Positions 48,098 to 64,000 of a stretch of 64,000 nucleotides of DNA are shown in pieces. The notes below the pieces were generated by a model. That model was not told where the DNA came from. It saw only the letters and a list, made by a program, of their open reading frames with translations, and searched no databases. The DNA is from Candidatus Poribacteria bacterium. GTDB taxonomy: Bacteria > Poribacteria > WGA-4E > PCPOR2b. The position numbers were made by a program, and so were the translations under genes. Location of the stretch: the NCBI GenBank assembly GCA_965208675.1, contig OZ242351.1:1344001-1408000 (forward strand), in the 5' to 3' direction. How positions within the stretch are numbered: position 1 is the first letter of the stretch; each line of letters begins with the position of its first letter.

Positions 48098-51000
48098 ATG
48101 ACTGCGAGAAACTCGTTCGTCTGTGTTATAGCATTTTTCCTGCTCACGTTGATATCCACACAGATGCTCTTGGCATCCGAAGGAGACCAATCCATCGGCC
48201 TTTCAGAAATTGCCGTTGAGATTAGGGATCGGGTGGATATCGGCAGTATGCGAAAGGACATCGCACGGCTTTCTAGCCTATCGAGCCGCGTGACGGGTTA
48301 TCCCGAAGCGGCTTCTGCCAGCAAATACATCTTCGACCGGTTTGTTGAAATTGGCTTGCAAAATGTGGAAAGCCGTGAATTCCCAATCACAGTTCCGATC
48401 GACCAAGGCGACGGTACGCTGGCGGTGCTTGATGCAGACGGAAAGGCGGTCGTGACAATCGAAATGCGATCAGTTTGGCCAAACCTCGTCCGGACCTCAC
48501 TGCTTCCCATTGGAATTAAACATGTGGTTGAAGGCGGAGAATCTTTAGAGGCAATTGCTCAATCCTACCGCGTTGACGTTCAATCCATTCTTGATGACCC
48601 ACACAATAAGTTTCTCCAAGATCAGGCGACCGATGGGCGGGACAACAACGGTGATGGAGCGGTCGATGAACCCGGGGAATTCGCGTTGATTGACGGAAAT
48701 ACAGTTTTTATACCGACCGGCGGATTAACCGCGCCGCTTTTTTACGGCGGCGGCGGCGAACTAGTTGACTTCAACGGAAAAGACATCGGCGGTTTTTGGT
48801 ACGAGGTTCAGCCCGGTGATACACTGCGAGACATTGCTCATCGCTTTCGTATCGGAGTAGGCAGCATCACCGATGATGTGCTTAACGGCCATCTTCAAAA
48901 AACCGAGGATGGTATTGATAACAACGAGGATGGCCGAATTGATGAATACGGTGAAATTCCTCTCCTCGCCGATATATTACATTGGGATACAGACGGCATT
49001 GATAACGACGCGGACGGCTTTATTGATGAGCATCCCGGCGGAGAAACGGACGGAATTGACAACAACAACGACGGCCGTGTTGACGAGGAGGGCGAGTTCA
49101 TCGCTGCTTACGAATCAAGCATATTTATACCTCGCGGCAGCGTAGTATTAATTGATTTCAACTCCAGTACCAAATGGATAAACGCAGCAATGCTCGGCGC
49201 GAAGGCTGTGGTTTTTATTGAACCGGAAACCACAATTCGCGGGGAGGCAGAGAATAAGTTCCTGACAGTCCCTGCCAACATACCGCGGTTTTGGATTTCT
49301 CGGGCAGATGCTGACACGCTGTTGGCGATGCTTGGTGAATCTTCTGACCTTACATCCTCCACCGACGAACAACAAAGGGAGGTCACGGTCCGCCTCAGCG
49401 CAACGATGACGTGGGAACGACGAATTGGGCAGAATATCCGCGGTTTCCTTGATGGCGGCGACCCAGCACTCAAGGACGAACTTGTCGTAATCACGGGGTA
49501 TTACGACTCGATGTCGGTTGTTCCTGCGATTGCGCCAGGAGCTGATCCGACTGGTGGAATTGCTGCGCTTTTCGAACTGGCGCGCATATTTAGCAAAGCA
49601 GAATTCCGGCCGGGGCGTTCGATTCTGTTCGTTGCTACAGACGCTCATTTTCAGGGGCTGGCGGGAATGCGAGCGTTCATGGAGGGGATTGGCCAAGATG
49701 TCGTGGGGCGGGAAGCTGATTCACCCGGAACGCCAACAATGCGCGGACTGCGACGAGGTTTAGCAGCAGATCTGTTTGAATTCAAAGAACTTGGCCGCAA
49801 ACTGCTGCTGTCGATTGATCGGAACGTATTGGTGGATTTGCCTCCGAATTTCTTTTACGAAGTCCATCAGCTTGACGACGCCCTCGATTCGCTCCAAATT
49901 ACATTAGGTGATCTTGAGGGGACTCGTGGCCGCGTCGAATGGCTAAGGAACGCTCAACGGGATTATAAAGAGAAACAGAAGAAGAAGCTTGAAACCACTA
50001 AAAAGCGCGAAAAGCAGGGGTTTACCCAAGAGGAGCATTCCCGCCTCGAAATTAACTTGGCTAAGTACAAAAAAGATGCTTTACAGACTACCCAATTTTT
50101 GCGATCGGTGGTCAGACGTGTGGATAATTTACGATCCCAAGCGCTGGAAGAGTCTCGAAAGGCACAGCGGGATCTGATTGAGAATATCGCGTTGCCCATG
50201 GCGCGGCTTGATGAGTGGGCGATTACGAAACTGGCGGCTGATCTGGCGGCGAAAAACATTGGCGGCAACTACGATCGAACGGCCGACAGTTCCTACCTGA
50301 AACCGAATGCGGACCAAGACGGAAACTACTACCTCCCGGTGCCATCCGACTTGATTGACACGCCATTGGCTAAAGCAGTGAATCGGCTTTCCGACCATTT
50401 AGAGGATTGGGAACTCAAAGACCGCCGAAAGTTTGCACTTCAATATGCTCAAGAACAACTCCTGGATCGGCACCTCGATTTTCACGGCTTAGAACAGATA
50501 AAAGAATCCCGGGAAATTGTACATCGCGCGACTAGAGCTTTAGGTGAATACATTGCAGAAGAGGAACAGGTCTTAAACCGCACGCTTCAAAAGATTCCTA
50601 CCGACACAGACTCCGAGTCACGCATCAAAACCGCCATTAACGGTTTACGAAGGGATGCTGCTTACGCGCCCGAGGATATTGACACGATTGTCGGCCCATT
50701 CCTTGGTGAATCCAGTCTGAACCGCTACAAGGTCATTCAAAAACAGCTTCGCCAAAAATTGGCGGAAATCGAGAGCACCGACGCCGGCGCGGTGGATCGA
50801 GAATCTCACGCCATATTCATTGAAGAACTGACTAAAGATAAACAAGCCATCTTCGAAACCGCCATGCGAAATGCCAGGCTTGAAAGGCAGCGTATCGAAT
50901 CGCTTTTGGAATTGCAACGCCACGCGTCGTTGAACCGGCCGTATCTTGAGGAAGAATTATTGGTGTTGAGCCACTACCTACCAGCCGACGAAGTTGACAC

Positions 51001-54000
51001 TGCCATAGAGGTGCGCGCCCAGATTGTCGCACAACTTGAGCAACAACGTCTGCTTCGGCTAGTTAAACAGCGTGCGAAGAATGATGTCGTTGAACTTCAG
51101 AATATGTTAAACCGCTTAGACGAACTCGACCAAGATCTTCCAGAAGAGATGAAGACGCTGCTTCGAGATAACATGCTAACGCTGCGAAACGCGAGATTCC
51201 GTAACATCCAAAAACGGGTGCAGGTGATTGCACGTATTAGCAAGTCTGAATACGACCGGAAAGTTGCCAACATTGAGCAAGCAATTGCCCTCCAAGACCT
51301 TTTCAACCGCTACTATACCTCTTTGTTTGTTTCTATCGACTTATCTACCCAAAACGACAAATTTGGCGTGTTCAACAAAGGTTGGTTCTATGACCAGCAG
51401 CCTGAATTTGTGCTGAGGCGCGAGTTTGCTTTCATCGGCAACAAACTCGCCGAGTATGCCGAGGATGTAGATTTTGGCGTCCGCATTAACAACCTTTGGA
51501 CGTTTACGGACGATCAGATTCGGCAGGCTGTGATGAACAGTCAATGGGAAATCGCATCCGGCATTGAGTCCAAACAGGCAATAGAGGGCAAGTCGTTGGA
51601 GACGCTGATTGACGAACACTACACGACGTTAGTCAAGCTTTCCGGCGTTTCGCGTTTAATGAAGATGCAGTTTGAACAGATGAGAGACCGAGGCGAGCCG
51701 TCCGAGGATATGCTCAAGGACATGGACTATATCCGCAAGGAGGTCGAGCGATTCATCCGAAACGATCAGCGCGAAGCCCGAAAAGAACGCAAAAACAGTA
51801 TTCGCCTCTTCAACCGGCTGCCTGCAATGCTTGCCCTACGGAAAGTGAAGCCGTCCGATTTGACCGAGGAGGAGATTGATGACATCAAGACCCTTATAGA
51901 CATTGTCGGCTTAGGGGGAGCTACCAACTTCGTTAACGCGATTTCAGCTTCAGGCGGCAAAACGTGGACAACTTATATTCCCGGCAAAATTGCATTTGAC
52001 AGCGAAGTTGCGACGCTCGTCGGAAAAACGGGGATTGCATTTGCCACCATTGATGATGCGCGGGTGCTTACGGACACGCCGTTGGATACGATTGATAAAA
52101 TGGATTTGAGGGAAGACGGCAATCTGCACAAACAGGCGAAAACGCTTGCGGCAATTCTTATACAGGCGATGCGCGACCCGAAGATGCCTACAGCGGCGCG
52201 CGTAGGCAACTTCTATTGCAATCTGTTTGGCGACGTTGTAGAGTATGACGCGCGCGAGAGCGCCTTGCCGAACAAACCCGTACCGCACCCAATCCTTACG
52301 CTGCGGCGCAAAAATAAAACAATGATGGGCGTTCGCGGCGATCTCTTTACTATGGGAGATAACAAAGGCGTTTTTGAAGTCGTCGGATTGGCGATGGAAG
52401 GGCGCGCCATTCAGCGGCGCGGCGGCACGCAAGAGGTAGAGGCGTATATCCTTGATTCCGATTCGGGAGATATTGTCTACGCACCAGATTTGGGCAACTT
52501 TGGTGCCGAACTACTGCCGAATAAGGTGCCTATTACCACACGCCGGCGCGGTTGCCGCATCGTGGTTTTTCCGTGCGTGTCCACCACGATTTACGACTTG
52601 GTCGACCAGCGGTATTTGCGGACACTTCGCGAATTGAACGTCTACGATGCGCTAAGCGACAGTCCTCCGGAAAAATACGGCGTGTCCAAGCCGTGGCAAC
52701 AGCCGATGGTTTCGGCGACTGAACCGATTGCATTGGTCTATTCTGAACCAAACTCCCGCATCAAAATCGGCATGGCATACGGGCAAATTGGAAAGCGGCT
52801 GCTGCTGATTAAAGCTGGCAAGAGCGGCGCCAAAAACCCGACCCTTTACACTGGGGAAGGGTTCGTCGTACAGGAAAACGGCTCTGTTCGCCTCACCCCG
52901 TACGTCGTTGTACGCGACATGTGGTGGCTTGATGAAAACCGCACCAGCCTTTACAAACGGTTCGGTATTAGCAGCGATCGCTTAGACAAACTCCACCTAT
53001 TTTCGAACGAACATCTGGAACAGGCGGAAGTTGCTTTGGATAAAAAGGACTATTCCATGGCGATGAAGCTCGCGCGCGGGGCATGGGGTTACGAATCGCG
53101 TGCGTATCCAGATGTTAAAAAGACCGGCAATGATGTGGTTAACGGTGTTATGTTCTATCTCGCACTGCTAATTCCCTTTGCCTACTTTATGGAACGCCTA
53201 ATTTTCGCATTTCCGGATGTTCACAAACAGATTCTTGGTGTATTCGCCATCTTTCTCGTAGTGTTCTTTTTCCTTTCACAAGCACATCCAGCCTTCCAGA
53301 TTACCACGACGCCGGTTATTATCCTAATTGCCTTCGTTGTGTTAGCATTAACTGTGATCGTGATTAGCATCATCGTCCGGAAGTTTGAGGAGCAGTTAGA
53401 ACAGATTAAGCAGGAACGCTCAAAGGTTTATAAAGCGGATGTTGGCCGCCTTGCCGCTTCCGCTGCTGCATTTAGCCTTGGCATCTCCAATATGCGCAAG
53501 CGGAAAGGCCGCACTCTCCTTACATGCGCCACGCTGGTAATTTTAACATTCACGGTAATCTCCTTCACATCGGTTCGAACCTTTATGCAACCCAACAGCA
53601 CCTCTTTGCCTTCTGTAACGCCCCAATACACGGGCATGTTGATTCGTGACCAATACTGGATTCCATTGGAGGAACCGGTGATTACGTCGGTAACGAACGA
53701 TATGCGAAAAACACGGATTGGCGAAAATGAACTCCGGGTGCTGTTGAAAAAGAAAGGAAAATCGCCCGATGAAATTGACTCGCTGCTTGCCTCGGCTAAA
53801 ATTGACATGGATCATGGTACTCGGGTAGAGGACATGTCCTCGACTCCTACCAGCGGGTTGAAGGATCAAGCGTATATCACGGTGCACAATGTTGTCGCGC
53901 CGCGGGCGTGGTATCAGTCTTCGGGTACCGGCGATCAGTCGTTCGTACAGTTGACGCGTATTGAAAATCCCAAGGATCCTGTGCCGCCGAAAGATCCATT

Positions 54001-55525
54001 GACCGATGAACCGCTAAGTTTTGCGGCAAACATGCTGGTGGGAATGAGCCCTCAGGAACCGGGTGTCACTGGTATTGACCGTTACCTGCAGTACGGCAAA
54101 TGGTTTACCCCTGCAGACGAAGCGGAATGGCCGACCCAATGGCCGTATGCATGCGTATTGCCAAAAGGTATGGCAGACCTCTTGGAAATCAGCGAATCTG
54201 ATATGGGGAATGCCACCATCTCAGTTTATGGCGCAAAATTCACTGTCACCGGTGTTCTGGGCATTGGGTTTAAGGATTTAACAGACAATGACGGCGAAGA
54301 ACTCACCCCTGTCGATTATCAATTGATGCATCAGCAACAATCGCGCGGGGGCGAGGGGGAAGAAACGCTTGAGGGCGAGTTGCAGAAGTATCTCCACCTT
54401 ACGCCGGATAGCATCGCTATTTTGCCATACGAGGTGATAATCAATCAAGGCGGAACACTGCGATCAGTCGCGGTCAATATGAACCCTCAAGAAGGCGATC
54501 CGCCGTTCCTAACCGGCGTTGATAAGCTAGATTTAATCATGGCGCCCCTAATGAGCCGCATTGCACTCGACTTTTTCGTCGGTCGGAACAAAGATACTTA
54601 CCTCTACAGCTCAATTGGGATGACTTCCTTCTCCGGAATGGGCAACTTATTTGTGCCAATACTTATCGCATCACTAATCGTACTGAACACAATGCTCGGC
54701 GCCGTGTATGAAAGAGTTCGGGAAATTGGTATTTACAGTTCCGTCGGGCTAGCGCCGGTGCATATAGCTTTTCTGTTTCTCGCAGAGGCGTGCGTGTACG
54801 CGATTGTGGGGGCAGTGTTGGGTTACCTACTCGGTCAAGTCGTGGCTACTCTCCTAGTGAATTTCGGCTGGCTTGCCGGATTGACCCTTAATTACTCATC
54901 AATGTCCACAGTGGTGGCAACCATTATCGTTATGCTAGTGGTCATCAGCAGCACACTCTACCCCGCTGTTAAAGCCGGACGGATGGCTGTTCCCGACATT
55001 GAACGGAAGTGGAAATTACCTGAACCGGAAGGCGACGAGTGGCACTTTGACCTTCCCTTCACAGTTCTATCCGAGGAATCACTTGGCTTGAACGTCTTTA
55101 TGCGGGACTATTTTGAAGCCCACTCCGACGAATCTGCGAGCGATTTCTATACTGACCAAATCTCTTTTAACCGGTCAACCGAGGAGATTGAAGGCAGGGA
55201 AAAAGAAACGTACGCGATTAGCATGATGGCTTGGGTAGCGCCTTACGATTTAGGGGTCGGTCAATCCATTCGATTTGTGACTTCCCCGGTTGGCGGAGAA
55301 GAGGAAGATCTCTACAACATCACCCTTGATGTGCACCGTGAAAGCGGCGAAATTGCCTCTTGGAAACGCGTCAACCGGCGTTTCTTAAACCTAATTCGTA
55401 AGCAACTGTTGGTCTGGCGAACGTTCAGCGCCGAGGTTCGCGGCGAGTTTCACGAACGCGGCCGTCACGACCGCCAATTCACTGATGCTCCTAACCTTGA
55501 ACTAGCACCACAGCCGGCTGACTGA
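48098..55525 (+). CDS. Giant 2475-aa fusion: signal peptide, 2 LysM-like, 4 acidic DGxDN repeats, degenerate M28 peptidase fold with helical insertions, TM helices, MacB/FtsX ABC permease
   Basis: 'SRVTGYPEAASASKYI', 'GYYDS...APGAD..GIAALFELAR' (M28-like); 'YEVQPGDTLRDIAHRF' (LysM); 'SNMRKRKGRTLLT' (MacB TM1); 'NTMLGAVYERVREIGIYSSVG...FLAEA' (FtsX). Confidence 0.85.
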   Translation: MTARNSFVCVIAFFLLTLISTQMLLASEGDQSIGLSEIAVEIRDRVDIGSMRKDIARLSSLSSRVTGYPEAASASKYIFDRFVEIGLQNVESREFPITVPIDQGDGTLAVLDADGKAVVTIEMRSVWPNLVRTSLLPIGIKHVVEGGESLEAIAQSYRVDVQSILDDPHNKFLQDQATDGRDNNGDGAVDEPGEFALIDGNTVFIPTGGLTAPLFYGGGGELVDFNGKDIGGFWYEVQPGDTLRDIAHRFRIGVGSITDDVLNGHLQKTEDGIDNNEDGRIDEYGEIPLLADILHWDTDGIDNDADGFIDEHPGGETDGIDNNNDGRVDEEGEFIAAYESSIFIPRGSVVLIDFNSSTKWINAAMLGAKAVVFIEPETTIRGEAENKFLTVPANIPRFWISRADADTLLAMLGESSDLTSSTDEQQREVTVRLSATMTWERRIGQNIRGFLDGGDPALKDELVVITGYYDSMSVVPAIAPGADPTGGIAALFELARIFSKAEFRPGRSILFVATDAHFQGLAGMRAFMEGIGQDVVGREADSPGTPTMRGLRRGLAADLFEFKELGRKLLLSIDRNVLVDLPPNFFYEVHQLDDALDSLQITLGDLEGTRGRVEWLRNAQRDYKEKQKKKLETTKKREKQGFTQEEHSRLEINLAKYKKDALQTTQFLRSVVRRVDNLRSQALEESRKAQRDLIENIALPMARLDEWAITKLAADLAAKNIGGNYDRTADSSYLKPNADQDGNYYLPVPSDLIDTPLAKAVNRLSDHLEDWELKDRRKFALQYAQEQLLDRHLDFHGLEQIKESREIVHRATRALGEYIAEEEQVLNRTLQKIPTDTDSESRIKTAINGLRRDAAYAPEDIDTIVGPFLGESSLNRYKVIQKQLRQKLAEIESTDAGAVDRESHAIFIEELTKDKQAIFETAMRNARLERQRIESLLELQRHASLNRPYLEEELLVLSHYLPADEVDTAIEVRAQIVAQLEQQRLLRLVKQRAKNDVVELQNMLNRLDELDQDLPEEMKTLLRDNMLTLRNARFRNIQKRVQVIARISKSEYDRKVANIEQAIALQDLFNRYYTSLFVSIDLSTQNDKFGVFNKGWFYDQQPEFVLRREFAFIGNKLAEYAEDVDFGVRINNLWTFTDDQIRQAVMNSQWEIASGIESKQAIEGKSLETLIDEHYTTLVKLSGVSRLMKMQFEQMRDRGEPSEDMLKDMDYIRKEVERFIRNDQREARKERKNSIRLFNRLPAMLALRKVKPSDLTEEEIDDIKTLIDIVGLGGATNFVNAISASGGKTWTTYIPGKIAFDSEVATLVGKTGIAFATIDDARVLTDTPLDTIDKMDLREDGNLHKQAKTLAAILIQAMRDPKMPTAARVGNFYCNLFGDVVEYDARESALPNKPVPHPILTLRRKNKTMMGVRGDLFTMGDNKGVFEVVGLAMEGRAIQRRGGTQEVEAYILDSDSGDIVYAPDLGNFGAELLPNKVPITTRRRGCRIVVFPCVSTTIYDLVDQRYLRTLRELNVYDALSDSPPEKYGVSKPWQQPMVSATEPIALVYSEPNSRIKIGMAYGQIGKRLLLIKAGKSGAKNPTLYTGEGFVVQENGSVRLTPYVVVRDMWWLDENRTSLYKRFGISSDRLDKLHLFSNEHLEQAEVALDKKDYSMAMKLARGAWGYESRAYPDVKKTGNDVVNGVMFYLALLIPFAYFMERLIFAFPDVHKQILGVFAIFLVVFFFLSQAHPAFQITTTPVIILIAFVVLALTVIVISIIVRKFEEQLEQIKQERSKVYKADVGRLAASAAAFSLGISNMRKRKGRTLLTCATLVILTFTVISFTSVRTFMQPNSTSLPSVTPQYTGMLIRDQYWIPLEEPVITSVTNDMRKTRIGENELRVLLKKKGKSPDEIDSLLASAKIDMDHGTRVEDMSSTPTSGLKDQAYITVHNVVAPRAWYQSSGTGDQSFVQLTRIENPKDPVPPKDPLTDEPLSFAANMLVGMSPQEPGVTGIDRYLQYGKWFTPADEAEWPTQWPYACVLPKGMADLLEISESDMGNATISVYGAKFTVTGVLGIGFKDLTDNDGEELTPVDYQLMHQQQSRGGEGEETLEGELQKYLHLTPDSIAILPYEVIINQGGTLRSVAVNMNPQEGDPPFLTGVDKLDLIMAPLMSRIALDFFVGRNKDTYLYSSIGMTSFSGMGNLFVPILIASLIVLNTMLGAVYERVREIGIYSSVGLAPVHIAFLFLAEACVYAIVGAVLGYLLGQVVATLLVNFGWLAGLTLNYSSMSTVVATIIVMLVVISSTLYPAVKAGRMAVPDIERKWKLPEPEGDEWHFDLPFTVLSEESLGLNVFMRDYFEAHSDESASDFYTDQISFNRSTEEIEGREKETYAISMMAWVAPYDLGVGQSIRFVTSPVGGEEEDLYNITLDVHRESGEIASWKRVNRRFLNLIRKQLLVWRTFSAEVRGEFHERGRHDRQFTDAPNLELAPQPAD
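48632..49087 (+). repeat. Four intragenic acidic repeats DG[RI]DN[ND]xDGx[VI]DE
   Basis: DGRDNNGDGAVDE, DGIDNNEDGRIDE, DGIDNDADGFIDE, DGIDNNNDGRVDE. Confidence 0.85.
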
Positions 55526-55876: not shown

Positions 55877-57865
55877 TTGGCGAGAGAGAGAATATCGCAA
55901 GCCGAGGAGTGGCAGGCTTGGGCGCAGCGTTACGATATGGAGGGCGGGATTCGGACATTTGAATCCGGTTTAACCCTCAAAGTCGTTCTAGGGGCCCTTT
56001 TTGTGGGGCTGTTGATGATGCCGGGCTCAATCTACTTGCAGTTAGTGTCAGGCCAAACGGGTGCAGGCGCCGCACCGTGGGTAGCGGTCATTCTATTTAC
56101 GGAATTGGCGCGCCGCTCATTTACGACAGCCAGACGACAGGAGCTATTCTTACTGCTTGGACTTACTGGTGCAGCGGTCGGATCTGGACTTCAGTACCGC
56201 GGCTTCATCTGGTACGCCTATTTTGTGCAAACGCCTCAAGCGGAGTCCTATGAAATCGCCGACAAGATTCCTTTTTGGGTTGCGCCATCACCGGATTCGA
56301 TTGCAATCGCAGAAAGATCGCTCTTGCACATGGATTGGTGGACGCCTATTTGGATCTTTTTGGTCATGCGGCTGCTTGGTACAATTCGACATATCAGCGC
56401 AGGTTATTTTTTGTTCCGGCTCACTGCTGACCTAGAACGACTTCCGTATCCACTGGCGCCTATTGAAGCACAAGGCGCGACCGCTCTAGCAGAGACCACA
56501 GGCAGGGCGGAAACGTGGCGTTGGCGTGTGTTTTCTATCGGTTCCATGGCGGGGTTACTGTGGGGTTTTCTATATATCGGTATTCCTTCACTTACTGGCG
56601 TGATGATGTCAGAGCCGATTGAGATTCTAAAAATCCCATTTATTGATTTTACCCCTAGTATTGAAGGATTTGCTCCGACAGGAGTGTTTGCGCTCTCCAC
56701 CGATTTTGGACAAATTCTCTTTGGGTTTGTGCTGCCATTTCCAATCGTGATGACTGAATTCATCGCGGCAATGTTTACCCAGTTTTTCCTGAATCCGCAA
56801 CTTTACCAACATGAAATATTGTATCAATGGCGTGCAGGTTTGGATGTCCGCGGCGTAGGATTGTTCAATGGCTTGGATTTCTGGATTAGCGCCAATATGG
56901 GTAAAGCTTTCAGCTTCGCAGTCGTCGGCCTTGCTGCATCTGTTCCCATGCTTATGAAATTTCGATCTGCGAGACAGGAAACTACCGGTACGCGCGGGTC
57001 GCTCCAAACGCCGCCGGGGCGCGGAGATTTTCCGCTCTGGCTAATGGCGGGGTTGTGGCTTATCGGCATGATTGGTTTTGTGTGGATGGTGCATTGGATG
57101 GTACCGAATTTTCCGATGAAATTTTTGCTGGGCTTTGCTTTTATATACACTCCGCTAAATTCCTACGTCACTGCGCGGACATTTGGGGTATTGGGGCGCG
57201 ATCTCTTTGAAATCCCCTATATCCACGAGACAACCTTTATCTTGAGCCGTTACGAGGAAATCGACATTTGGTTCGTTGAATTACCAAATGAGGACTACGG
57301 CCGCGGCACACAAGGTTGGCGCGTGTGCGAACTGACGGGAACTACGTTTACAAGTAACATTGCAGCCCATCTATTGATTATGCCGATTCTACTAATTTCC
57401 GGAATTCTCGTATGGCATTTCATTTGGAAAATCGCGCCAATTCCTTCAGCGCAATATCCTTTCGCTCAAACTTGGTGGCCAATCTACGCAACCAACGAAT
57501 GTCTGTGGAAGACCTCGCTTCGCGATGGAAGCAGTCAGATGTTGCAGGCCATCCGAGGCGACTACGTTGCGACCGGATTTACCGGTTCGCTTGCTATCTA
57601 CGGCATCCTCTGGTTAGCGAAGATGCCTAGCATGTGGTTTTACGGCATCGTGGGTGGTATCGGCGCCGACCCAGGTATGATGATACCAAGACTAATCGGT
57701 GCAATAATAGGCCGATTTTATATGATTAAACGATTCGGCTTGAAACGGTGGTTTATGTTCAATCCAGTTTTGGCAGCCGGCTTTACATGCGGTGTTGGCC
57801 TCATCGGAATGGGAACTGTGGCTATTGCACTGGTATCCAAAGCAGTCATTGTTAAACCGTTCTGA
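55877..57865 (+). CDS. OPT/YSL-like peptide transporter (polytopic membrane protein)
   Basis: About 16-17 TM segments; 'LTLKVVLGALFVGLLMMPGSIYL.L.SG' (OPT TM1-2-like), 'ERLPYPLAPI...GATALA' (OPT 'L.FP...A' motif), 'PVLAAGFTCGVGLIG'; SD AAAGGAG. Confidence 0.75.
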   Translation: MARERISQAEEWQAWAQRYDMEGGIRTFESGLTLKVVLGALFVGLLMMPGSIYLQLVSGQTGAGAAPWVAVILFTELARRSFTTARRQELFLLLGLTGAAVGSGLQYRGFIWYAYFVQTPQAESYEIADKIPFWVAPSPDSIAIAERSLLHMDWWTPIWIFLVMRLLGTIRHISAGYFLFRLTADLERLPYPLAPIEAQGATALAETTGRAETWRWRVFSIGSMAGLLWGFLYIGIPSLTGVMMSEPIEILKIPFIDFTPSIEGFAPTGVFALSTDFGQILFGFVLPFPIVMTEFIAAMFTQFFLNPQLYQHEILYQWRAGLDVRGVGLFNGLDFWISANMGKAFSFAVVGLAASVPMLMKFRSARQETTGTRGSLQTPPGRGDFPLWLMAGLWLIGMIGFVWMVHWMVPNFPMKFLLGFAFIYTPLNSYVTARTFGVLGRDLFEIPYIHETTFILSRYEEIDIWFVELPNEDYGRGTQGWRVCELTGTTFTSNIAAHLLIMPILLISGILVWHFIWKIAPIPSAQYPFAQTWWPIYATNECLWKTSLRDGSSQMLQAIRGDYVATGFTGSLAIYGILWLAKMPSMWFYGIVGGIGADPGMMIPRLIGAIIGRFYMIKRFGLKRWFMFNPVLAAGFTCGVGLIGMGTVAIALVSKAVIVKPF

Positions 57866-57978: not shown

Positions 57979-58911
57979 ATGGAATGGACAAATTTTGGTT
58001 GGGCGGGTATCACTTTAGAAATTCCAGCGAACTGGGAGTTGAGTGGATTATCTGGTGACGAGAAAAAGGGGTATTTGCGGTTAGACGATGAGACGACACC
58101 GCGTCTAGAGTTAAAATGGTCTGAATCGAAGCAGAAAAAACCAGACCTGCATCGCGTCCTTGACGAATATTTTAAACTTATCCGTAAGAATTTTAAGCGT
58201 ACAGAGGCTAAACTTCATATTCAGCGGAATGTCAATCTCATCAAAGATGAATCCTTCCTTGACGGCAGAGACGCGGTATTCTTTAGTTGGAAGGGAAGTT
58301 ACCGAGCAAATGGTGTAATCTGCCACTGTCACACGTGCAAACGAATAACAATTGTCCAGGTGATGGGACATCTCAAGGAAAACCTCCGTACGACATCCGT
58401 GCGAATCTTGAGTTCGCTTCACGATCATCCGGCTGGGCCGACGCCCCTGTGGACCGCATACCAACTCAACGTTGAAGTGCCGCGCCGATACCGCCTTGAA
58501 AAACATCAATTCCTGTCCGGATATCTGTTAATGTCTTTCGTTGATGGCAGCCGCAAGCTTTCAATTGAACGATATGGACTAGCGGATATTACTCTCAAAG
58601 AGAGTGATTTGGAATCTTGGTTTCGAGCCAAGTATACCAAGGCTATTCGAGGATATGGCTTCAAAATGGAGTCTATCCAATCTGACGATGGAGATGAGCG
58701 GTTTACGTGTATTGGCGAACGCACACGTCTGACCGATCACGTACCGTTTGCACCTGTATTATTTATTGACAAAATTTTGCGGCGGCAGACCTTTGCCGCT
58801 CACATTCGGCATTGTTACGAGTCCAATCGCATCTATGTTTTACAAGCAGTCGCCAAGCGCGACGCAGTTAAGACTGTGGATGGGGTTGCGGCAAGCATTC
58901 GATGTCACTAG
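57979..58911 (+). CDS. Hypothetical cytoplasmic protein with an internal duplication (PsbP/DcrB-like fold inferred)
   Basis: Two similar halves: 'FGWAGITLEIPANW...GYLRL...CHTCKRITIVQ' and 'WTAYQLNVEVPRRY...GYLLM...CYESNRIYVLQ'. Confidence 0.7.
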   Translation: MEWTNFGWAGITLEIPANWELSGLSGDEKKGYLRLDDETTPRLELKWSESKQKKPDLHRVLDEYFKLIRKNFKRTEAKLHIQRNVNLIKDESFLDGRDAVFFSWKGSYRANGVICHCHTCKRITIVQVMGHLKENLRTTSVRILSSLHDHPAGPTPLWTAYQLNVEVPRRYRLEKHQFLSGYLLMSFVDGSRKLSIERYGLADITLKESDLESWFRAKYTKAIRGYGFKMESIQSDDGDERFTCIGERTRLTDHVPFAPVLFIDKILRRQTFAAHIRHCYESNRIYVLQAVAKRDAVKTVDGVAASIRCH

Positions 58912-58930: not shown

Positions 58931-59350
58931 ATGATTAATACCATTCTTTACAAACTCCGACTAAAAAAACGACCAGATTCGGAATTTGACCGGGAGCGTA
59001 TCTTAAACGCATTACCGCTTCGAAACCAATTAATCAAATGGGAAGTTGATGACAAAGAGGAGGTTTCACTTGTCATTCCCCAGCAGCAGAAACTATGGAT
59101 TCGGATAGCTTCCAGGATTTTTTCCTTGCCTGACAAACGCGTGATTGTTTTGGATGATGTCGGGTCTTATGTGTGGCGTCTATGCGACGGAAATAACTCG
59201 ATTAGCCAAATTGTAAAACACCTTAGTAAACAATACCGTATGACACGAAAAGAAGCTGAAACGTCGCTTTTCACCTTTATGCGGCAGTTGGGCAAACGAA
59301 ACATAATTGGATTTGCTGTTTCCAAAAAACCAAAAGGAGGGGAGAAGTAG
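58931..59350 (+). CDS. PqqD-family / RiPP recognition element (RRE) protein
   Basis: 'VLDDVGSYVWRLCDGNNSISQIVKHLSKQY....EAE.SL..FMRQL....II' matches the PqqD winged-helix pattern. Confidence 0.85.
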   Translation: MINTILYKLRLKKRPDSEFDRERILNALPLRNQLIKWEVDDKEEVSLVIPQQQKLWIRIASRIFSLPDKRVIVLDDVGSYVWRLCDGNNSISQIVKHLSKQYRMTRKEAETSLFTFMRQLGKRNIIGFAVSKKPKGGEK

Positions 59351-60166
59351 ATGGCAGAACCCGATGCGATTGATGCAAATAGTGGTGATGTTCCTGCCGA
59401 AACGACTGCCCGAGCTACGCGGCAGTTGCCGAAGGAAAACACCGTGCGCGTCAGGAATTTGATTAAAAGATATGAGATGGGTTCGAGTATCGTCGGTGCG
59501 TTGCAAGGCGTTAATTTCGAAATTCGCCGCGGCGAATACATATCGATTATTGGCCCCTCCGGAAGCGGAAAATCCACGCTTTTTAACATGATTGGGGGGT
59601 TGGATAAACCGACGGAAGGCAGGGTGTATATTGATGAGGTGGATATTGCGCAGTTAGATGCATATGAGCTTGCATGGCTTCGTTGCCGCAAAATCGGTTA
59701 CATATTTCAATCGTTTAATTTAATTCCTGTGATGACTGCCTTGGAAAATGTCTCCCTACCAATGATATTTGGAGGTATGACCGCCGATGACAGCCGCCAA
59801 AAGGGTGCGGACTTGCTTACACTGGTGGGGTTAGGCGACCGGATACAGCATAAACCGCTTGAACTCTCCGGTGGACAGCAACAGCGCGTTGCCGTTGCGC
59901 GCTCTCTTGCTAACGATCCGGCAATTGTGCTTGCGGACGAGCCGACAGGCAATCTTGATACCCATACAGGCCTGGAGATTATCGCCCTTCTAAAACAGTT
60001 GAACGAAGAAAACGGTGTGACAATCATCACTGCTACCCATGATACAAAGATGCTTGACGTATCGGACCGAATTTTCTATATGGCTGACGGCAAAGTTGAA
60101 AAGATTGAGACCCGCGACGAAATTGATCTGCAGGTCGGTCGGCTGGACGGTCAGGAAGTTGGGTAG
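59351..60166 (+). CDS. ABC transporter ATP-binding protein, LolD/MacB family
   Basis: Walker A GPSGSGKST, 'IGYIFQSFNL', LSGGQQQR, 'LADEPTGNLD', 'ATHD'; starts immediately after the PqqD stop. Confidence 0.95.
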   Translation: MAEPDAIDANSGDVPAETTARATRQLPKENTVRVRNLIKRYEMGSSIVGALQGVNFEIRRGEYISIIGPSGSGKSTLFNMIGGLDKPTEGRVYIDEVDIAQLDAYELAWLRCRKIGYIFQSFNLIPVMTALENVSLPMIFGGMTADDSRQKGADLLTLVGLGDRIQHKPLELSGGQQQRVAVARSLANDPAIVLADEPTGNLDTHTGLEIIALLKQLNEENGVTIITATHDTKMLDVSDRIFYMADGKVEKIETRDEIDLQVGRLDGQEVG

Positions 60167-60998
60167 GTTTTGCTCTATCACCAAATGTTGGAGTAAAACA
60201 ATTTGAAGAAAGGCCACACAGTGATACAGGCACAGGTATAGCACAAATTCTGACGAGAAAATAGTTTCAGGTTATACTCATAGCCAATTATTCGTCCGCG
60301 AACTATTGTCCCTTCCCTATCTCAATTTCGCAAGCCGTTAGCCGTTTTTCTTTTTCCCTCCAATTATTCGTGCTGATTTACCTTACACCGTAAATGAAGA
60401 GAAATGCCTTCAAGTTGAGTTGGACACCTGCCAGTCTCACTCAAGATGTCATTCTCTCCTTGCCGATAAATGGTGTAATGAGCAAAAATCTAGTAGCCTG
60501 ACAAATCGCATGTCCAAGAGCATGATTGAATAATAGGTGGCGAGGTGAAATTTTGCCTTTTGAATTGTAACATTCGGTGAAAATTCTATCGCGCTCCACA
60601 TTCGGTCGCTTAATCCAACTTTGGGGCTTTTGATTAAGGGGTAATTGGCGTTTCCATTTACCGTTCGCACTTCTAGGGTTTTGCTTTAACAGCTTGAATA
60701 AAAGCTGATGGCAGAATAATGTTTTTGTCATTTGTGGGACCAAATCATTGGATATTCAAGACACGTAATATCGAATATTCTCCCCCGAAGACAGTTTCGA
60801 ACTTTTCAAACAATTTGCATTAAAAGCCAGTTCATCAACCACAAATATCGGTTGCATTTCAGGCTCGAATTGTGAGATAATGTCCAATAGAACTGCATTG
60901 ATAATGTTTTTTTTGCAAGGCTTACCCGTTAACAAATTTTGAATTCAATTCTGGAATATACGGCTTATACTTAGAAAACCAAATGGAGGAAATTTACG

Positions 60999-62615: not shown

Positions 62616-64000
62616 ATGACAAGGGCGCATTTTGTCTGTACGTTATGGATTGGAATCTTATTCGCTGTTTACGGCGGGTTTGCCTATGCTCTGGTATTCG
62701 GGGATACCGCCTTACAGGGGGCCATCTTTACCGCTGCGGATAGCTCACCCGCACAACAGCCGATATTCGAAATAAGAGGTTTATTTCACACAAATCTCTC
62801 TGCGCCGCCTAATTTCGGAGCACGATCTACTGTATCCGACGAAACCCAATCTACCACTAGAACCGAAACGTTAGATGAGTTGCGCAGAGAAAAATTGTCC
62901 GGTACGGCCCCATCTCCAAATTCCAGTTCAACACTCCCTTATAATTTTATTTCAAATTCAGATGAAAAGCAGATTGCGAAGTTGGTTTCCAATGCGGCAT
63001 CCATAACCGGTATCCGGATGCCAATGCGGTCGTCCTATGGGAAGCAGAGATATTGGAAATCAGTGACGATGCAAGTTCTGTTTATTCAACACGCCGCGTT
63101 GTAAAGATTCTGAACGAGGGAGGATTCAAATTCGGCGGGATTAGTATCCCTTACACGCGCGGAAATGATAATATCACCCTTCATCATGCACGAAGCATAA
63201 CGCCCGATGGGCGGGTGACTGAACTGGATAAGCGCAAAATTGTTAAAGATATTCCTCCGCCAAGTGCAGTCGAACGTGGGTTGTTTGTTGACGCTCGACT
63301 AATGCACTTCACAATCCCCGAAATGGCCAATGGCTGCGTCATTGACTACGCTTATTCGTCCAAAAACTTGGGCAACATCATGCAAGGCGAATTCTGGCGG
63401 CAAGTCTATTACCAAACATCCGCACCGGTACAATACTTCCGCTTCACAGTGCACCTGCCCAAAAATAAACCGCTCTATTACCAGATAAGCGGCCCGTTAA
63501 TTGAACCGGTGATTACGGAAGGCAACTACACGCGCACTTACACATTTGAAGTGCGCGATGTGCCAGCGTTACATCGGGAAGAATTCATGCCAGCCATTGA
63601 AGACGTCGCATACAATATCAGCATCTCATCAATCGCATCGTGGGATGAACTGGTCATATGGTATGCGTCACTCATCCAGGATCAGGATTTAATCTCGCCA
63701 GAAATTCAGGAGACCACAAAATCGCTGCTTAGGGGGGCTTGGACCCGAAAGGAGAAGATTAAGCGGCTTTACGAATACGTAACCGCGAACATCAATTACG
63801 TTGGAATCGAACTTGGGATTTGGGCGATTAAACCCCATCCGGCGCCCTTGATTCTCAAAGAAAAATATGGCGACTGCAAAGACAAAACAACATTGTTAAG
63901 TACCATGCTGGCTGCTACAGGGATTAGGTCGTATCCTGTGTTGATTTCAGCTGGCGCCTCCCGCAGTGTTGTGCGAGAAATTCCGTCGCTCGCATACTTC
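62616..64000 (+). pseudogene. DUF3857 plus transglutaminase-like domain protein, frameshifted near 63000, runs off the window
   Basis: The signal-peptide frame (62616) must shift -1 between 62966 and 63011. The second frame stays open to the window end: YPDANAVVLWE...RRVVKILN...VIDYAY...SWDEL..WY...YGDCKDKTTLL. Confidence 0.8.

Follow-up and report, generated by a model that had tools for sequence, protein, structure and literature searches.

Is a protein with the fold of an M28 aminopeptidase, but with most of its metal ligands replaced, still a peptidase when it is the exported head of an ATP-binding cassette (ABC) permease? This question is raised by a single open reading frame (ORF) encoding 2475 amino acids (P0001, positions 48098 to 55525) in a 64,000-nucleotide stretch of contig OZ242351.1 from a Candidatus Poribacteria bacterium. 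We refer to this stretch as the window; nucleotide positions are those of the window, and all of the features described in it are on the + strand. The product of this giant gene consists of an exported PA+M28-like head, a middle domain, three extra transmembrane (TM) helices, a MacB/FtsX-type permease, and a cytoplasmic C-terminal domain. The gene was found in all 61 searched genomes of the phylum with no internal stops, which rules out the possibility that it is two genes or a broken gene. An earlier reading made from the sequence alone (the sequence-only reading) had described the head as an M28 fold with substituted metal ligands, a nicalin/nicastrin-like pseudopeptidase on an ABC permease. 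We propose that the head is no longer a di-zinc aminopeptidase and that it would instead be the exported head of a type VII ABC machine, a non-hydrolytic binding module driven by the ABC motor. We give this proposal about an even chance of being correct.

The four motifs on which the sequence-only reading was built are real and lie in one frame within the giant ORF: GYYDS (residues 467 to 471, positions 49496 to 49510), GADPT (residues 481 to 485, positions 49538 to 49552), DAHFQ (residues 515 to 519, positions 49640 to 49654), and TDTPLDT (residues 1325 to 1331, positions 52070 to 52090). We aligned the family's N-terminal module with the four canonical M28 proteins of the same genome by hhalign (99.1%, E of 5.5e-19, 375 columns). 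In this alignment, AYYDS in the family stands opposite AHYDS in the canonical proteins, which puts Tyr468 at the position of a ligand His, and PGA-E/D stands opposite PGASD, so that the bridging Asp is kept as Asp or Glu (D483 in the window protein). Family GHF is paired with canonical GEE, which places His517 at the general-base Glu and Phe518 at the ligand Glu. The second Asp ligand is kept where LDLS is paired with NFDL (D1081, in the sequence SIDLS), and DTPxD is paired with HSQED, which puts Asp1326 at the position of the last ligand His. A phmmer alignment of a short family member (P0193) with the aminopeptidase 2ek8 gives the same pairing at 4 of the 5 sites; the second Asp ligand lies outside that alignment. 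From the Pfam, hhalign, and phmmer alignments, we conclude that these motifs are true counterparts of the M28 motifs and not chance look-alikes.

In these alignments the general base and three of the five ligands of the zinc site are replaced, and two Asp ligands (D483 and D1081) are kept. The substitution of metal ligands put forward in the sequence-only reading therefore stands for three ligands and the general base, but GADPT, which had been counted as a substituted motif, retains the ligand Asp, and its Pro replaces a residue that is not a ligand. The inventory was also one position short, since the fifth ligand position, the retained D1081, had been missed. With respect to what defines an M28 peptidase, the fold is present, the five-ligand set His, Asp, Glu, Asp, His is absent, and the general-base Glu is absent. 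Since the head lacks the defining catalytic features, it should not be filed as an M28 peptidase, and the warning that an aminopeptidase annotation would mislead is borne out by relatives that carry the name "M28 family peptidase," which their sequences do not support.

The PA+M28 module extends from residue 3 to residue 1427 (positions 48104 to 52378). The motifs lie inside it, as the sequence-only reading had it, but the module is larger than the 49480 to 52150 assigned there. A head hidden Markov model (HMM) made from the N-terminal 520 residues of 52 short family members maps to the Poribacterial head in five pieces (residues 3 to 137, 203 to 232, 346 to 531, 1059 to 1125, and 1269 to 1427), which are split by four insertions (residues 138 to 202, 233 to 345, 532 to 1058, and 1126 to 1268). 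The first piece (positions 48104 to 48508) corresponds to HMM positions 7 to 124. The third piece (positions 49133 to 49690) was assigned by Pfam, HMM mapping, phmmer, and hhalign, and contains the PA domain and the N-terminal half of the M28 core, with Y468, D470, D483, H517, and F518. HMM mapping and alignments place D1081 in the central M28 piece (positions 51272 to 51472) and D1320, R1322, D1326, T1327, P1328, and D1330 in the C-terminal part of the module (positions 51902 to 52378). Pfam Peptidase_M28 (PF04389) matches residues 447 to 529 with 30.8 bits (cutoff, 21.3; E of 3.1e-7) over profile positions 2 to 78 of 193, and the PA domain (residues 345 to 408) is below the Pfam threshold, with 20.5 bits against a cutoff of 23.9. 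The M28 match is uninterrupted in several short members (e.g., residues 222 to 436 of P0193, profile positions 1 to 182). The four canonical M28 proteins encoded in the same genome (loci L130 to L133) have full-length profile matches of 114 to 125 bits and the consensus H/D/EE/D/H motifs, so ordinary M28 chemistry is available elsewhere in the cell.

The structure comparison that the sequence-only reading had called for, with aminopeptidases, nicastrin, and nicalin, shows the M28 fold but does not single out any of these proteins. The AlphaFold2 (AF2) model of residues 346 to 1427, made with a 60-sequence alignment, has a mean predicted local distance difference test score (pLDDT) of 85.1 and a predicted template modeling score (pTM) of 0.68, and the ranges aligned by VIA-align cover both halves of the split M28 domain. 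Among PA-M28 aminopeptidases, VIA-align matched the model to 6hc6 (Z of 17.5, 4.5 Å, 278 residues aligned) and 2ek8 (Z of 17.1, 7.0 Å, 278 aligned); it also matched Aeromonas aminopeptidase 1amp (Z of 16.4, 3.1 Å, 211 aligned) and the Streptomyces enzyme SGAP (1tf9, Z of 15.7; 1cp7, Z of 15.6, 2.9 Å, 193 aligned). Values for nicalin-containing entries (7tm3_7, Z of 16.8, 4.3 Å, 312 aligned; 9c7u_A, Z of 16.7, 4.2 Å, 318 aligned), for the gamma-secretase chain 8x52_A (Z of 15.5, 4.9 Å, 332 aligned), for glutaminyl cyclases (Z of 15.3 to 16.0; 4fwu_A, Z of 16.0, 3.4 Å, 225 aligned), and for the transferrin receptor (3kas_A, Z of 15.8, 6.6 Å, 264 aligned) are similar. From chain length, we take the matched chains of 505 to 521 residues to be nicalin and 8x52_A to be nicastrin. 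All of these matches are tied within about 2 Z units, active enzymes and nicalin/nicastrin alike, the range for aminopeptidases, nicastrin, and nicalin being 15.5 to 17.5. In a Foldseek search with the head model, the top match was 7tm3_7 (E of 8.8e-4), and 6hc6 was matched with an E of 1.4e-3. When the short member P0193 was compared with PDB sequences by phmmer (E of ≤0.01), the only M28 folds that it reached were the bacterial aminopeptidases 2ek8 (E of 1.6e-9) and 6hc6 (E of 2.8e-9). By profile and structure comparison, the PA+M28 fold of the head is complete, and its sequence and fold indicate that the head probably descends from PA-M28 aminopeptidases. An M28 fold that lacks the canonical cocatalytic zinc set is confirmed by Pfam, hhalign, VIA-align, and the residue counts given below, while the label "nicalin/nicastrin-like" finds no specific support.

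These fold matches bear on one alternative, that the head is a pure scaffold as proposed for nicalin. It would then bind no small ligand, an Asp/Arg/His network would replace the zincs as a structural clamp, and the head would act as a spacer or as a platform on which partner proteins dock. The matches to nicalin-containing entries and to the gamma-secretase chain are what this alternative would predict, but the nicalin match is no better than those to active enzymes. The fold also tolerates big lineage-specific insertions, and invariant R1322, which stands beside invariant carboxylates, could neutralize them. Against a clamp, the PA domain, which covers the pocket in active enzymes, has several invariant charged residues, and four of the seven site positions are invariant compared with 7% of core columns, which in our judgment is more than a clamp seems to need. 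We regard a pure scaffold as decidedly unlikely.

In order to determine how far the replacement pocket is conserved, we counted residues in three sets of sequences. Among 21 Poribacterial sequences, Y468, D470, H517, F518, D1081, and D1326 are each present in all 21; position 483 varies, with 18 Asp, 1 Glu, and 2 Gln. Family-wide counts were made with 138 representatives that have an N-terminal match, 125 of which have all seven site positions aligned. The first ligand position is Tyr in 85 of the 138, Phe in 16, His in 9, Pro in 6, and Asn in 3. At the bridging position, 84 have Glu, 23 have Asp, and 19 have a non-acidic residue. The general-base position is His in 119 (117 of 124 in a separate count of representatives), and the position of the ligand Glu is Phe in 63, with Tyr, His, Gly, or Cys in 10 to 12 each. 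Asp is found at the second Asp position in 113 representatives, and the last His position is Asp in 105, Asn in 9, and Gly in 9. The canonical H-D-D-E-E-D-H pattern occurs in 0 of the 125 fully aligned representatives, and none of these has Glu at the general base or His as the last ligand. Y-D-E-H-F-D-D is the most frequent pattern (25/125); the Y-D-D-H-F-D-D of the window protein occurs in 9/125. Replacement of the ligands is therefore both ancient and family-wide.

The third set consists of 60 sequences from several phyla, in which 27 of 390 well-occupied core columns are invariant. The invariant residues include D470, H517, D1081, D1320, R1322, D1326, T1327, and P1328, with D1330 present in 59 of 60, and, in the PA domain, R381, E385, K387, P392, P396, and R397. 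Invariance extends to four of the seven positions of the canonical site, compared with 27 of 390 columns overall (hypergeometric P of 5.6e-4). The sequence-only reading had asked whether the substitutions are invariant across homologs; H517 and D1326 are, whereas the Tyr at the first ligand position is not, as the counts above show. These values indicate that the pocket residues D470, H517, D1081, D1320, R1322, D1326, and D1330 are under strong purifying selection. Since the replacement residues are invariant across phyla, we conclude that the site was rebuilt and then held fixed rather than that it drifted.

The same conservation would be expected of a working enzyme, and it speaks for a second alternative, that the head is a rewired hydrolase. 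His517 would be its general base, it would work either with one metal held by carboxylates (D/E483, D1081, and D1326) or without metal, and the role of the ABC motor would be to supply the substrate or to position it. Invariance of H517, D470, D1081, D1320, R1322, and D1326 across phyla is consistent with this, as is an intact M28 fold with an intact substrate-side PA domain (invariants R381, E385, K387, and R397). The model also matches M28-fold glutaminyl cyclases at the Z values given above, and these enzymes work with a single zinc. In addition, the title of a PDB entry and a title in a reference list call the E151H mutant of the Aeromonas aminopeptidase "functional." However, nearly all members lack both His ligands (the last is kept in 0/125 and the first in 9/138), the position of the ligand Glu is Phe, Gly, Cys, or Ala in most, and no M28 enzyme is known to rely on a site made up of carboxylates alone.

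The bridging carboxylate provides a further argument against a rewired hydrolase. It is missing in 19 of 124 representatives, and of these 19, the His is kept in 18, the D1081 equivalent in 18, the D1326 equivalent in 17, and D1320, R1322, and D1330 in all 19. The bridging ligand is thus dispensable, and since the remainder of the pocket is maintained where it has been lost, a conserved two-metal site with a bridging ligand is disfavored. The occurrence of Phe, Pro, and Asn at the first ligand position points the same way: variation falls on those residues that such a center would most require. A complete alternative two-metal site is the finding that the sequence-only reading had named as its own refutation, and the sequence evidence speaks against such a site. 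We consider a rewired hydrolase possible but, on balance, unlikely.

The ABC motor of our proposal is supported by the C-terminal half of the protein. Pfam FtsX (PF02687) matches residues 2186 to 2296 with 46.2 bits (cutoff, 25.5). MacB_PCD matches the window protein with 19.2 bits, which is under its cutoff of 27, but exceeds it in relatives (e.g., 40.1 bits in P0125). The AF2 model of residues 1428 to 2475 has a pLDDT of 80.5 and a pTM of 0.70, and the Foldseek list obtained with it is filled by MacB-type chains: MacB 5gko_A (E of 3.2e-11), LolCDE 9rlc_E (E of 5e-8), YtrEF 9o9x_C (E of 2.5e-6), further matches to HrtBA and YbbAP chains, and the isolated periplasmic domains 3ftj (E of 1.4e-4) and 5udf_B (E of 9.8e-4). 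Sequence matches of a short family member are to LolF, MacB, YtrF, and LolC. The features of a type VII permease are present, namely, an FtsX domain with TM helices 2 to 4 following TM helix 1, a periplasmic domain between TM helices 1 and 2, and a cognate ATPase. We conclude that the C-terminal half is a MacB/LolC-type (type VII) ABC permease; the sequence-only reading had recognized an ABC permease here.

Between the head and the permease core lie a β-rich middle domain with a helical stalk (residues 1428 to 1679, positions 52379 to 53134; AF2 secondary structure) and three extra TM helices (residues 1680 to 1759, positions 53135 to 53374; hydropathy and AF2 helices). The MacB/LolC-type core, defined by Pfam FtsX and Foldseek, consists of TM helix 1, the periplasmic domain, and TM helices 2 to 4 (residues 1808 to 2287, positions 53519 to 54958), and is followed in the AF2 model by a cytoplasmic C-terminal domain of strands and helices (residues 2300 to 2475, positions 54995 to 55522). 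A hydropathy scan shows the three helices at residues 1680 to 1759, one at residues 1808 to 1826, and peaks at residues 2185 to 2287 that we take as three helices. The same type of scan shows an N-terminal hydrophobic signal or anchor (residues 1 to 27, positions 48098 to 48178). This topology fits a head on the outer side of the membrane, a core of the FtsX type, and a tail in the cytoplasm. The middle domain and the three extra TM helices thus form a covalent connection between the head and a MacB-like permease, and a LolD-type ATPase is encoded in the same conserved operon. At E of ≤10, Pfam gave no credible match to the middle domain (residues 1428 to 1721), to the C-terminal domain, or to residues 1722 to 1934, which contain a TM segment and the beginning of the periplasmic domain. 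The giant protein has no model of its own in NCBIfam, where it gave generic subthreshold matches only (ADOP, MacB, LolC, and FtsX).

The insertions that split the Poribacterial head are of two types. Positions 48509 to 49132, assigned by Pfam LysM, HMM mapping, and repeat positions, contain lineage-specific insertions that lie within the start of the PA domain. The first LysM segment is in residues 138 to 202, and the second, together with acidic DGIDNN-type repeats, is in residues 233 to 345; HMM mapping places the short conserved piece of residues 203 to 232 between these two insertions. Pfam finds both LysM segments in the giant protein (LysM, 31.8 bits, E of 1.4e-7). The acidic repeats, D-G-x-D-N-N-x-D-G-x-x-D-E, are at positions 48629 to 48682 and 48899 to 49117 (residues 178 to 195 and 268 to 340); they resemble calcium-binding thrombospondin-type-3 loops, and they have a weak match to the NCBIfam "acidic double-disulfide repeat" (E of 0.62). 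The other two insertions, both defined by HMM mapping and AF2, are helical. The larger one, of 527 residues, lies within the M28 fold (residues 532 to 1058, positions 49691 to 51271), is modeled as long helices with a pLDDT mostly of 80 to 95, has E, K, R, Q, D, or L at 53% of its residues, and is missing from relatives of about 1500 residues. The second, likewise rich in these six residues, is 143 residues long (residues 1126 to 1268, positions 51473 to 51901). The insertions with LysM domains and acidic repeats, like the long helical ones, appear to be Poribacteria-specific additions, and they probably tether or extend the head in the cell envelope.

Two LysM segments and long helical inserts on a type VII ABC motor also call to mind a cell wall regulator similar to FtsEX-EnvC, in which a dead-peptidase head with a coiled coil and LysM domains would control peptidoglycan hydrolases. 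The presence of the gene in 61 of 61 genomes of the phylum fits such a housekeeping role. However, the LysM segments and helical inserts are missing from the relatives of about 1500 residues, which are most of the family, and therefore cannot define the family's function. In addition, the partners kept with the giant gene, an oligopeptide transporter (OPT)-like permease and a PqqD-like protein, are neither amidases nor products of division genes, and M28 is not known as a peptidoglycan-hydrolase family. We consider this explanation very unlikely.

The family to which the giant protein belongs is large. A phmmer search with residues 1276 to 2475 against 1.84 billion cluster representatives (the family clusters are defined at 50% identity) gave 6181 matches at E of ≤0.001 and 1319, mostly from Armatimonadota, at E of ≤1e-30. 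Most of the best 150 matches are 1450 to 1700 residues long, so the Poribacterial protein is an enlarged member of a big family. FtsX was found in all 31 of the representatives scanned, and Peptidase_M28 was found at E of ≤0.01 in 23 of them and above the cutoff in 21. In a scan of species-representative genomes, a relative is encoded at 595 of the 599 places that matched the pattern. The best 80 of these 595 loci are mostly from Armatimonadota and also from candidate division WS1, Hebobacteria, Zipacnadia, and Desantisbacteria. One relative that carries the name "M28 family peptidase" is a member from Zixibacteria.

Several variants of the giant gene were seen. Genomes of one Poribacterial family (G019, G001, G009, G010, G017, and G031) have a second copy of the giant gene, a paralogue of about 2560 residues, 72% identical over residues 1 to 1899. 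No partner genes were found within about 9 kb downstream of the paralogue at loci L040 (G019) and L041 (G001), and the L041 copy has Glu at the bridging position. At two Armatimonadota loci, a separate ORF of 560 to 640 residues downstream of the ATPase matches the head HMM (L082:19754-20872, HMM positions 22 to 319; L065:20985-21287, HMM positions 230 to 319 only), and it may represent a portion of the head that is encoded on its own. DNA nearly identical to positions 49133 to 52378 is present in sequencing runs of 11 studies, with at least half of the sampled words found in 15 runs. Those of the runs with an open label are labeled "sponge metagenome," and the best match may be the source sample. 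There was no RNA run among the runs with nearly identical DNA.

We examined the neighbors of the giant gene at 40 non-Poribacterial loci with at least 9 kb of downstream sequence. Directly downstream in the window is a gene for a multipass membrane protein of 662 residues, possibly of the OPT type (positions 55877 to 57865), whose equivalent adjoins the giant gene at 36 of the 40 loci. This protein has Atlas feature scores of 0.97 to 0.98 to "peptide transporter" clusters, in which 15 to 33% of members carry OPT, and Pfam OPT (PF03169) matches 1 of 33 of its homologues (E of 2.7e-5). The window copy has no Pfam match at E of ≤10 and no NCBIfam match at E of ≤1, and the family profile has no match to PDB sequences at E of ≤1. 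We describe this protein as possibly OPT-like. The next gene (positions 57979 to 58911) encodes a protein of 310 residues with no signal peptide, which synteny marks as a conserved partner (30 of the 40 loci). In Pfam it has only a weak, subthreshold match to DUF7238 (E of 0.024), it has no NCBIfam match at E of ≤1, and in the Atlas it falls only in "hypothetical protein" clusters, which are found in Poribacteria, Gemmatimonadota, and Armatimonadota.

A 139-residue ORF of the PqqD-like type (peptide-binding, of the ribosomally synthesized and posttranslationally modified peptide [RiPP] recognition element type) follows at positions 58931 to 59350. Pfam PqqD (PF05402) matches it with 46.7 bits (cutoff, 23.4; E of 4e-12), and the equivalent small ORF matches PqqD at all nine loci tested. 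It is easily missed at an ORF cutoff of 150 residues, and its last base abuts the ATG of the ATPase gene (position 59351), which suggests that the two may be translationally coupled. Although a PqqD-like protein raises the possibility of a RiPP cluster, the conserved block contains no radical-SAM, cyclase, protease, or precursor-like gene, and we rejected this as the main reading. The ATPase itself (positions 59351 to 60166) is of the LolD/MacB/FtsE type (Pfam ABC_tran, E of 3.2e-34); its best NCBIfam matches, LolD, MacB, YbbA, and FtsE, are all under their equivalog cutoffs. It is 61 to 85% identical across phyla and is present at 34 of the 40 loci. The 662-residue protein, the 310-residue protein, and the ATPase are all present at each of the six Poribacterial loci with downstream flanking sequence. 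Beyond the ATPase gene is a stretch of 832 nucleotides (positions 60167 to 60998) with no ORF of ≥100 residues on the + strand. An ORF with a DUF3857 and a transglutaminase-like core domain, which runs off the end of the window (positions 63053 to 64000), is seemingly unrelated to the operon.

In Armatimonadota operons, a second FtsX gene follows the PqqD-like ORF at all eight loci tested; six of these genes are minimal (209 to 229 residues), and two are longer (443 and 628 residues). The genome from which the window was taken encodes a minimal FtsX-type permease of 243 residues about 132 kb upstream of the giant gene (L122, G000:C1:1258741-1262400). It is 50% identical to the minimal FtsX of an Armatimonadota operon and is followed by a second LolD-like ATPase, of 270 residues. 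By analogy with LolC/LolE, the transporter may be a heterodimer of the giant and minimal permeases. A complex prediction for the 662-residue protein with residues 1592 to 1832 of the giant protein gave a score of 0.36, whereas the best of three controls gave 0.00; at least 91% of the contacts are shared between runs, and the partner pLDDT is at least 63. The mark used for these predictions is reached by 116 of 157 solved complexes and by 2 of 215 mismatched pairs, and scores of ≤0.60 account for 18 of the 157 and for both of the mismatches that pass. The prediction points weakly to a physical link between the giant protein and the 662-residue protein.

How might a non-hydrolytic binding module work in such a machine? 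The head would be a binding or gripping module. Its pocket is acidic and contains a single His and a single Arg, which would make it suitable for a cationic group, for instance, the N terminus of a peptide. Binding and hydrolysis of ATP in the cytoplasm would shift the position or openness of the head through the stalk helices of the permease (mechanotransmission), and the machine, working with the OPT-like permease, would then act on a substrate that is peptide-like or belongs to the envelope. A peptide-like cargo is suggested by the presence of OPT-like and PqqD-like partners. In a more specific version of the proposal, the pocket is a receptor for a free peptide N terminus or another cationic group, the MacB-type motor hands peptide-like cargo to or from the OPT-fold permease, and the PqqD-like protein receives or delivers the same cargo. 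We regard this specific version as doubtful.

Several observations weigh against our proposal. Conserved His, Asp, and Arg residues in a former active site are also what would be expected of a working enzyme, and if the E151H mutant is indeed "functional," His at the general-base position by itself need not mean inactivity. With respect to the cargo, the nature of the ligand is inferred purely from the neighbors, and the OPT assignment rests on feature similarity and on matches to Pfam in 1 of 33 homologues. The PqqD-like and 310-residue proteins are cytoplasmic and so cannot touch the head, and the complex prediction with the 662-residue protein gives weak support.

The full-text literature that we searched, which does not extend to subscription-only journals, contained no paper on the giant-permease family, and the family and its gene cluster appear to be widespread and unstudied. 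Database names such as "M28 family peptidase" or "LysM domain protein" misdescribe what is an ABC permease of 1500 to 2500 residues, from whose peptidase-fold head the catalytic zinc set is missing. This would be a bacterial case in which a peptidase fold has been turned into a non-canonical module on an ATP-driven mechanotransducer, and the invariant residues H517, D1081, D1320, R1322, and D1326 are clear mutational targets. Should the head bind peptides on behalf of an OPT-like partner, ABC energy would be coupled to peptide traffic in a new way. If it is in fact a peptide receptor, the system would be an undescribed class of envelope machine that takes up or exports peptides with the help of ATP, found in all of Poribacteria and Armatimonadota and in several further phyla.

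Compared with PA-M28 aminopeptidases (BSAP/YwaD of B. subtilis, 6hc6; Aneurinibacillus AM-1, 2ek8; Aeromonas/Vibrio AAP, 1amp; Streptomyces SGAP, 1cp7), the head has the same PA+M28 fold and has in common with them the Asp that follows the first ligand, Asp/Glu at the bridging position, the second Asp ligand, and a TPxD motif. In contrast to these enzymes, it has Tyr in place of a ligand His, His in place of the general-base Glu, Phe in place of the ligand Glu, and Asp in place of the last ligand His, as well as the extra invariant residues D1320 and R1322. The aminopeptidases are soluble secreted enzymes, whereas the head is split by four insertions and fused to a seven-TM ABC permease.

Nicalin, nicastrin, and the transferrin receptor likewise have an M28-type fold and a PA-like lobe without the canonical zinc set, and each is the exoplasmic part of a membrane complex. 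Nicalin belongs to the BOS complex, whose components are TMEM147, nicalin, and NOMO (PMC9630114). Nicalin and nicastrin are eukaryotic single-pass subunits, whereas the head described here is fused to a bacterial ATP-driven permease with at least seven TM helices. In nicastrin and the transferrin receptor, the former M28 site has drifted; the replacement residues of the head, in contrast, are invariant across phyla.

Type VII ABC systems (MacB, LolCDE, FtsEX-EnvC, YtrEF, HrtBA, and YbbAP) share with the giant protein and its operon the FtsX four-helix core, the periplasmic domain between TM helices 1 and 2, and an ATPase of the LolD/MacB/FtsE type. FtsEX works through EnvC, a degenerate LytM peptidase-fold partner that controls peptidoglycan hydrolases. 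Near the giant gene, the neighbors are those for the OPT-like permease, the PqqD-like protein, and the 310-residue protein, and no adaptor, TolC, LolA, or amidase genes were seen. The second, minimal FtsX gene of the Armatimonadota operons recalls the LolC/LolE pair. Beyond what these systems have, the giant protein carries a cytoplasmic tail of 175 residues and an N-terminal extension of about 1800 residues (in short relatives, about 950), which consists of the M28-like head, the middle domain, and the three extra TM helices.

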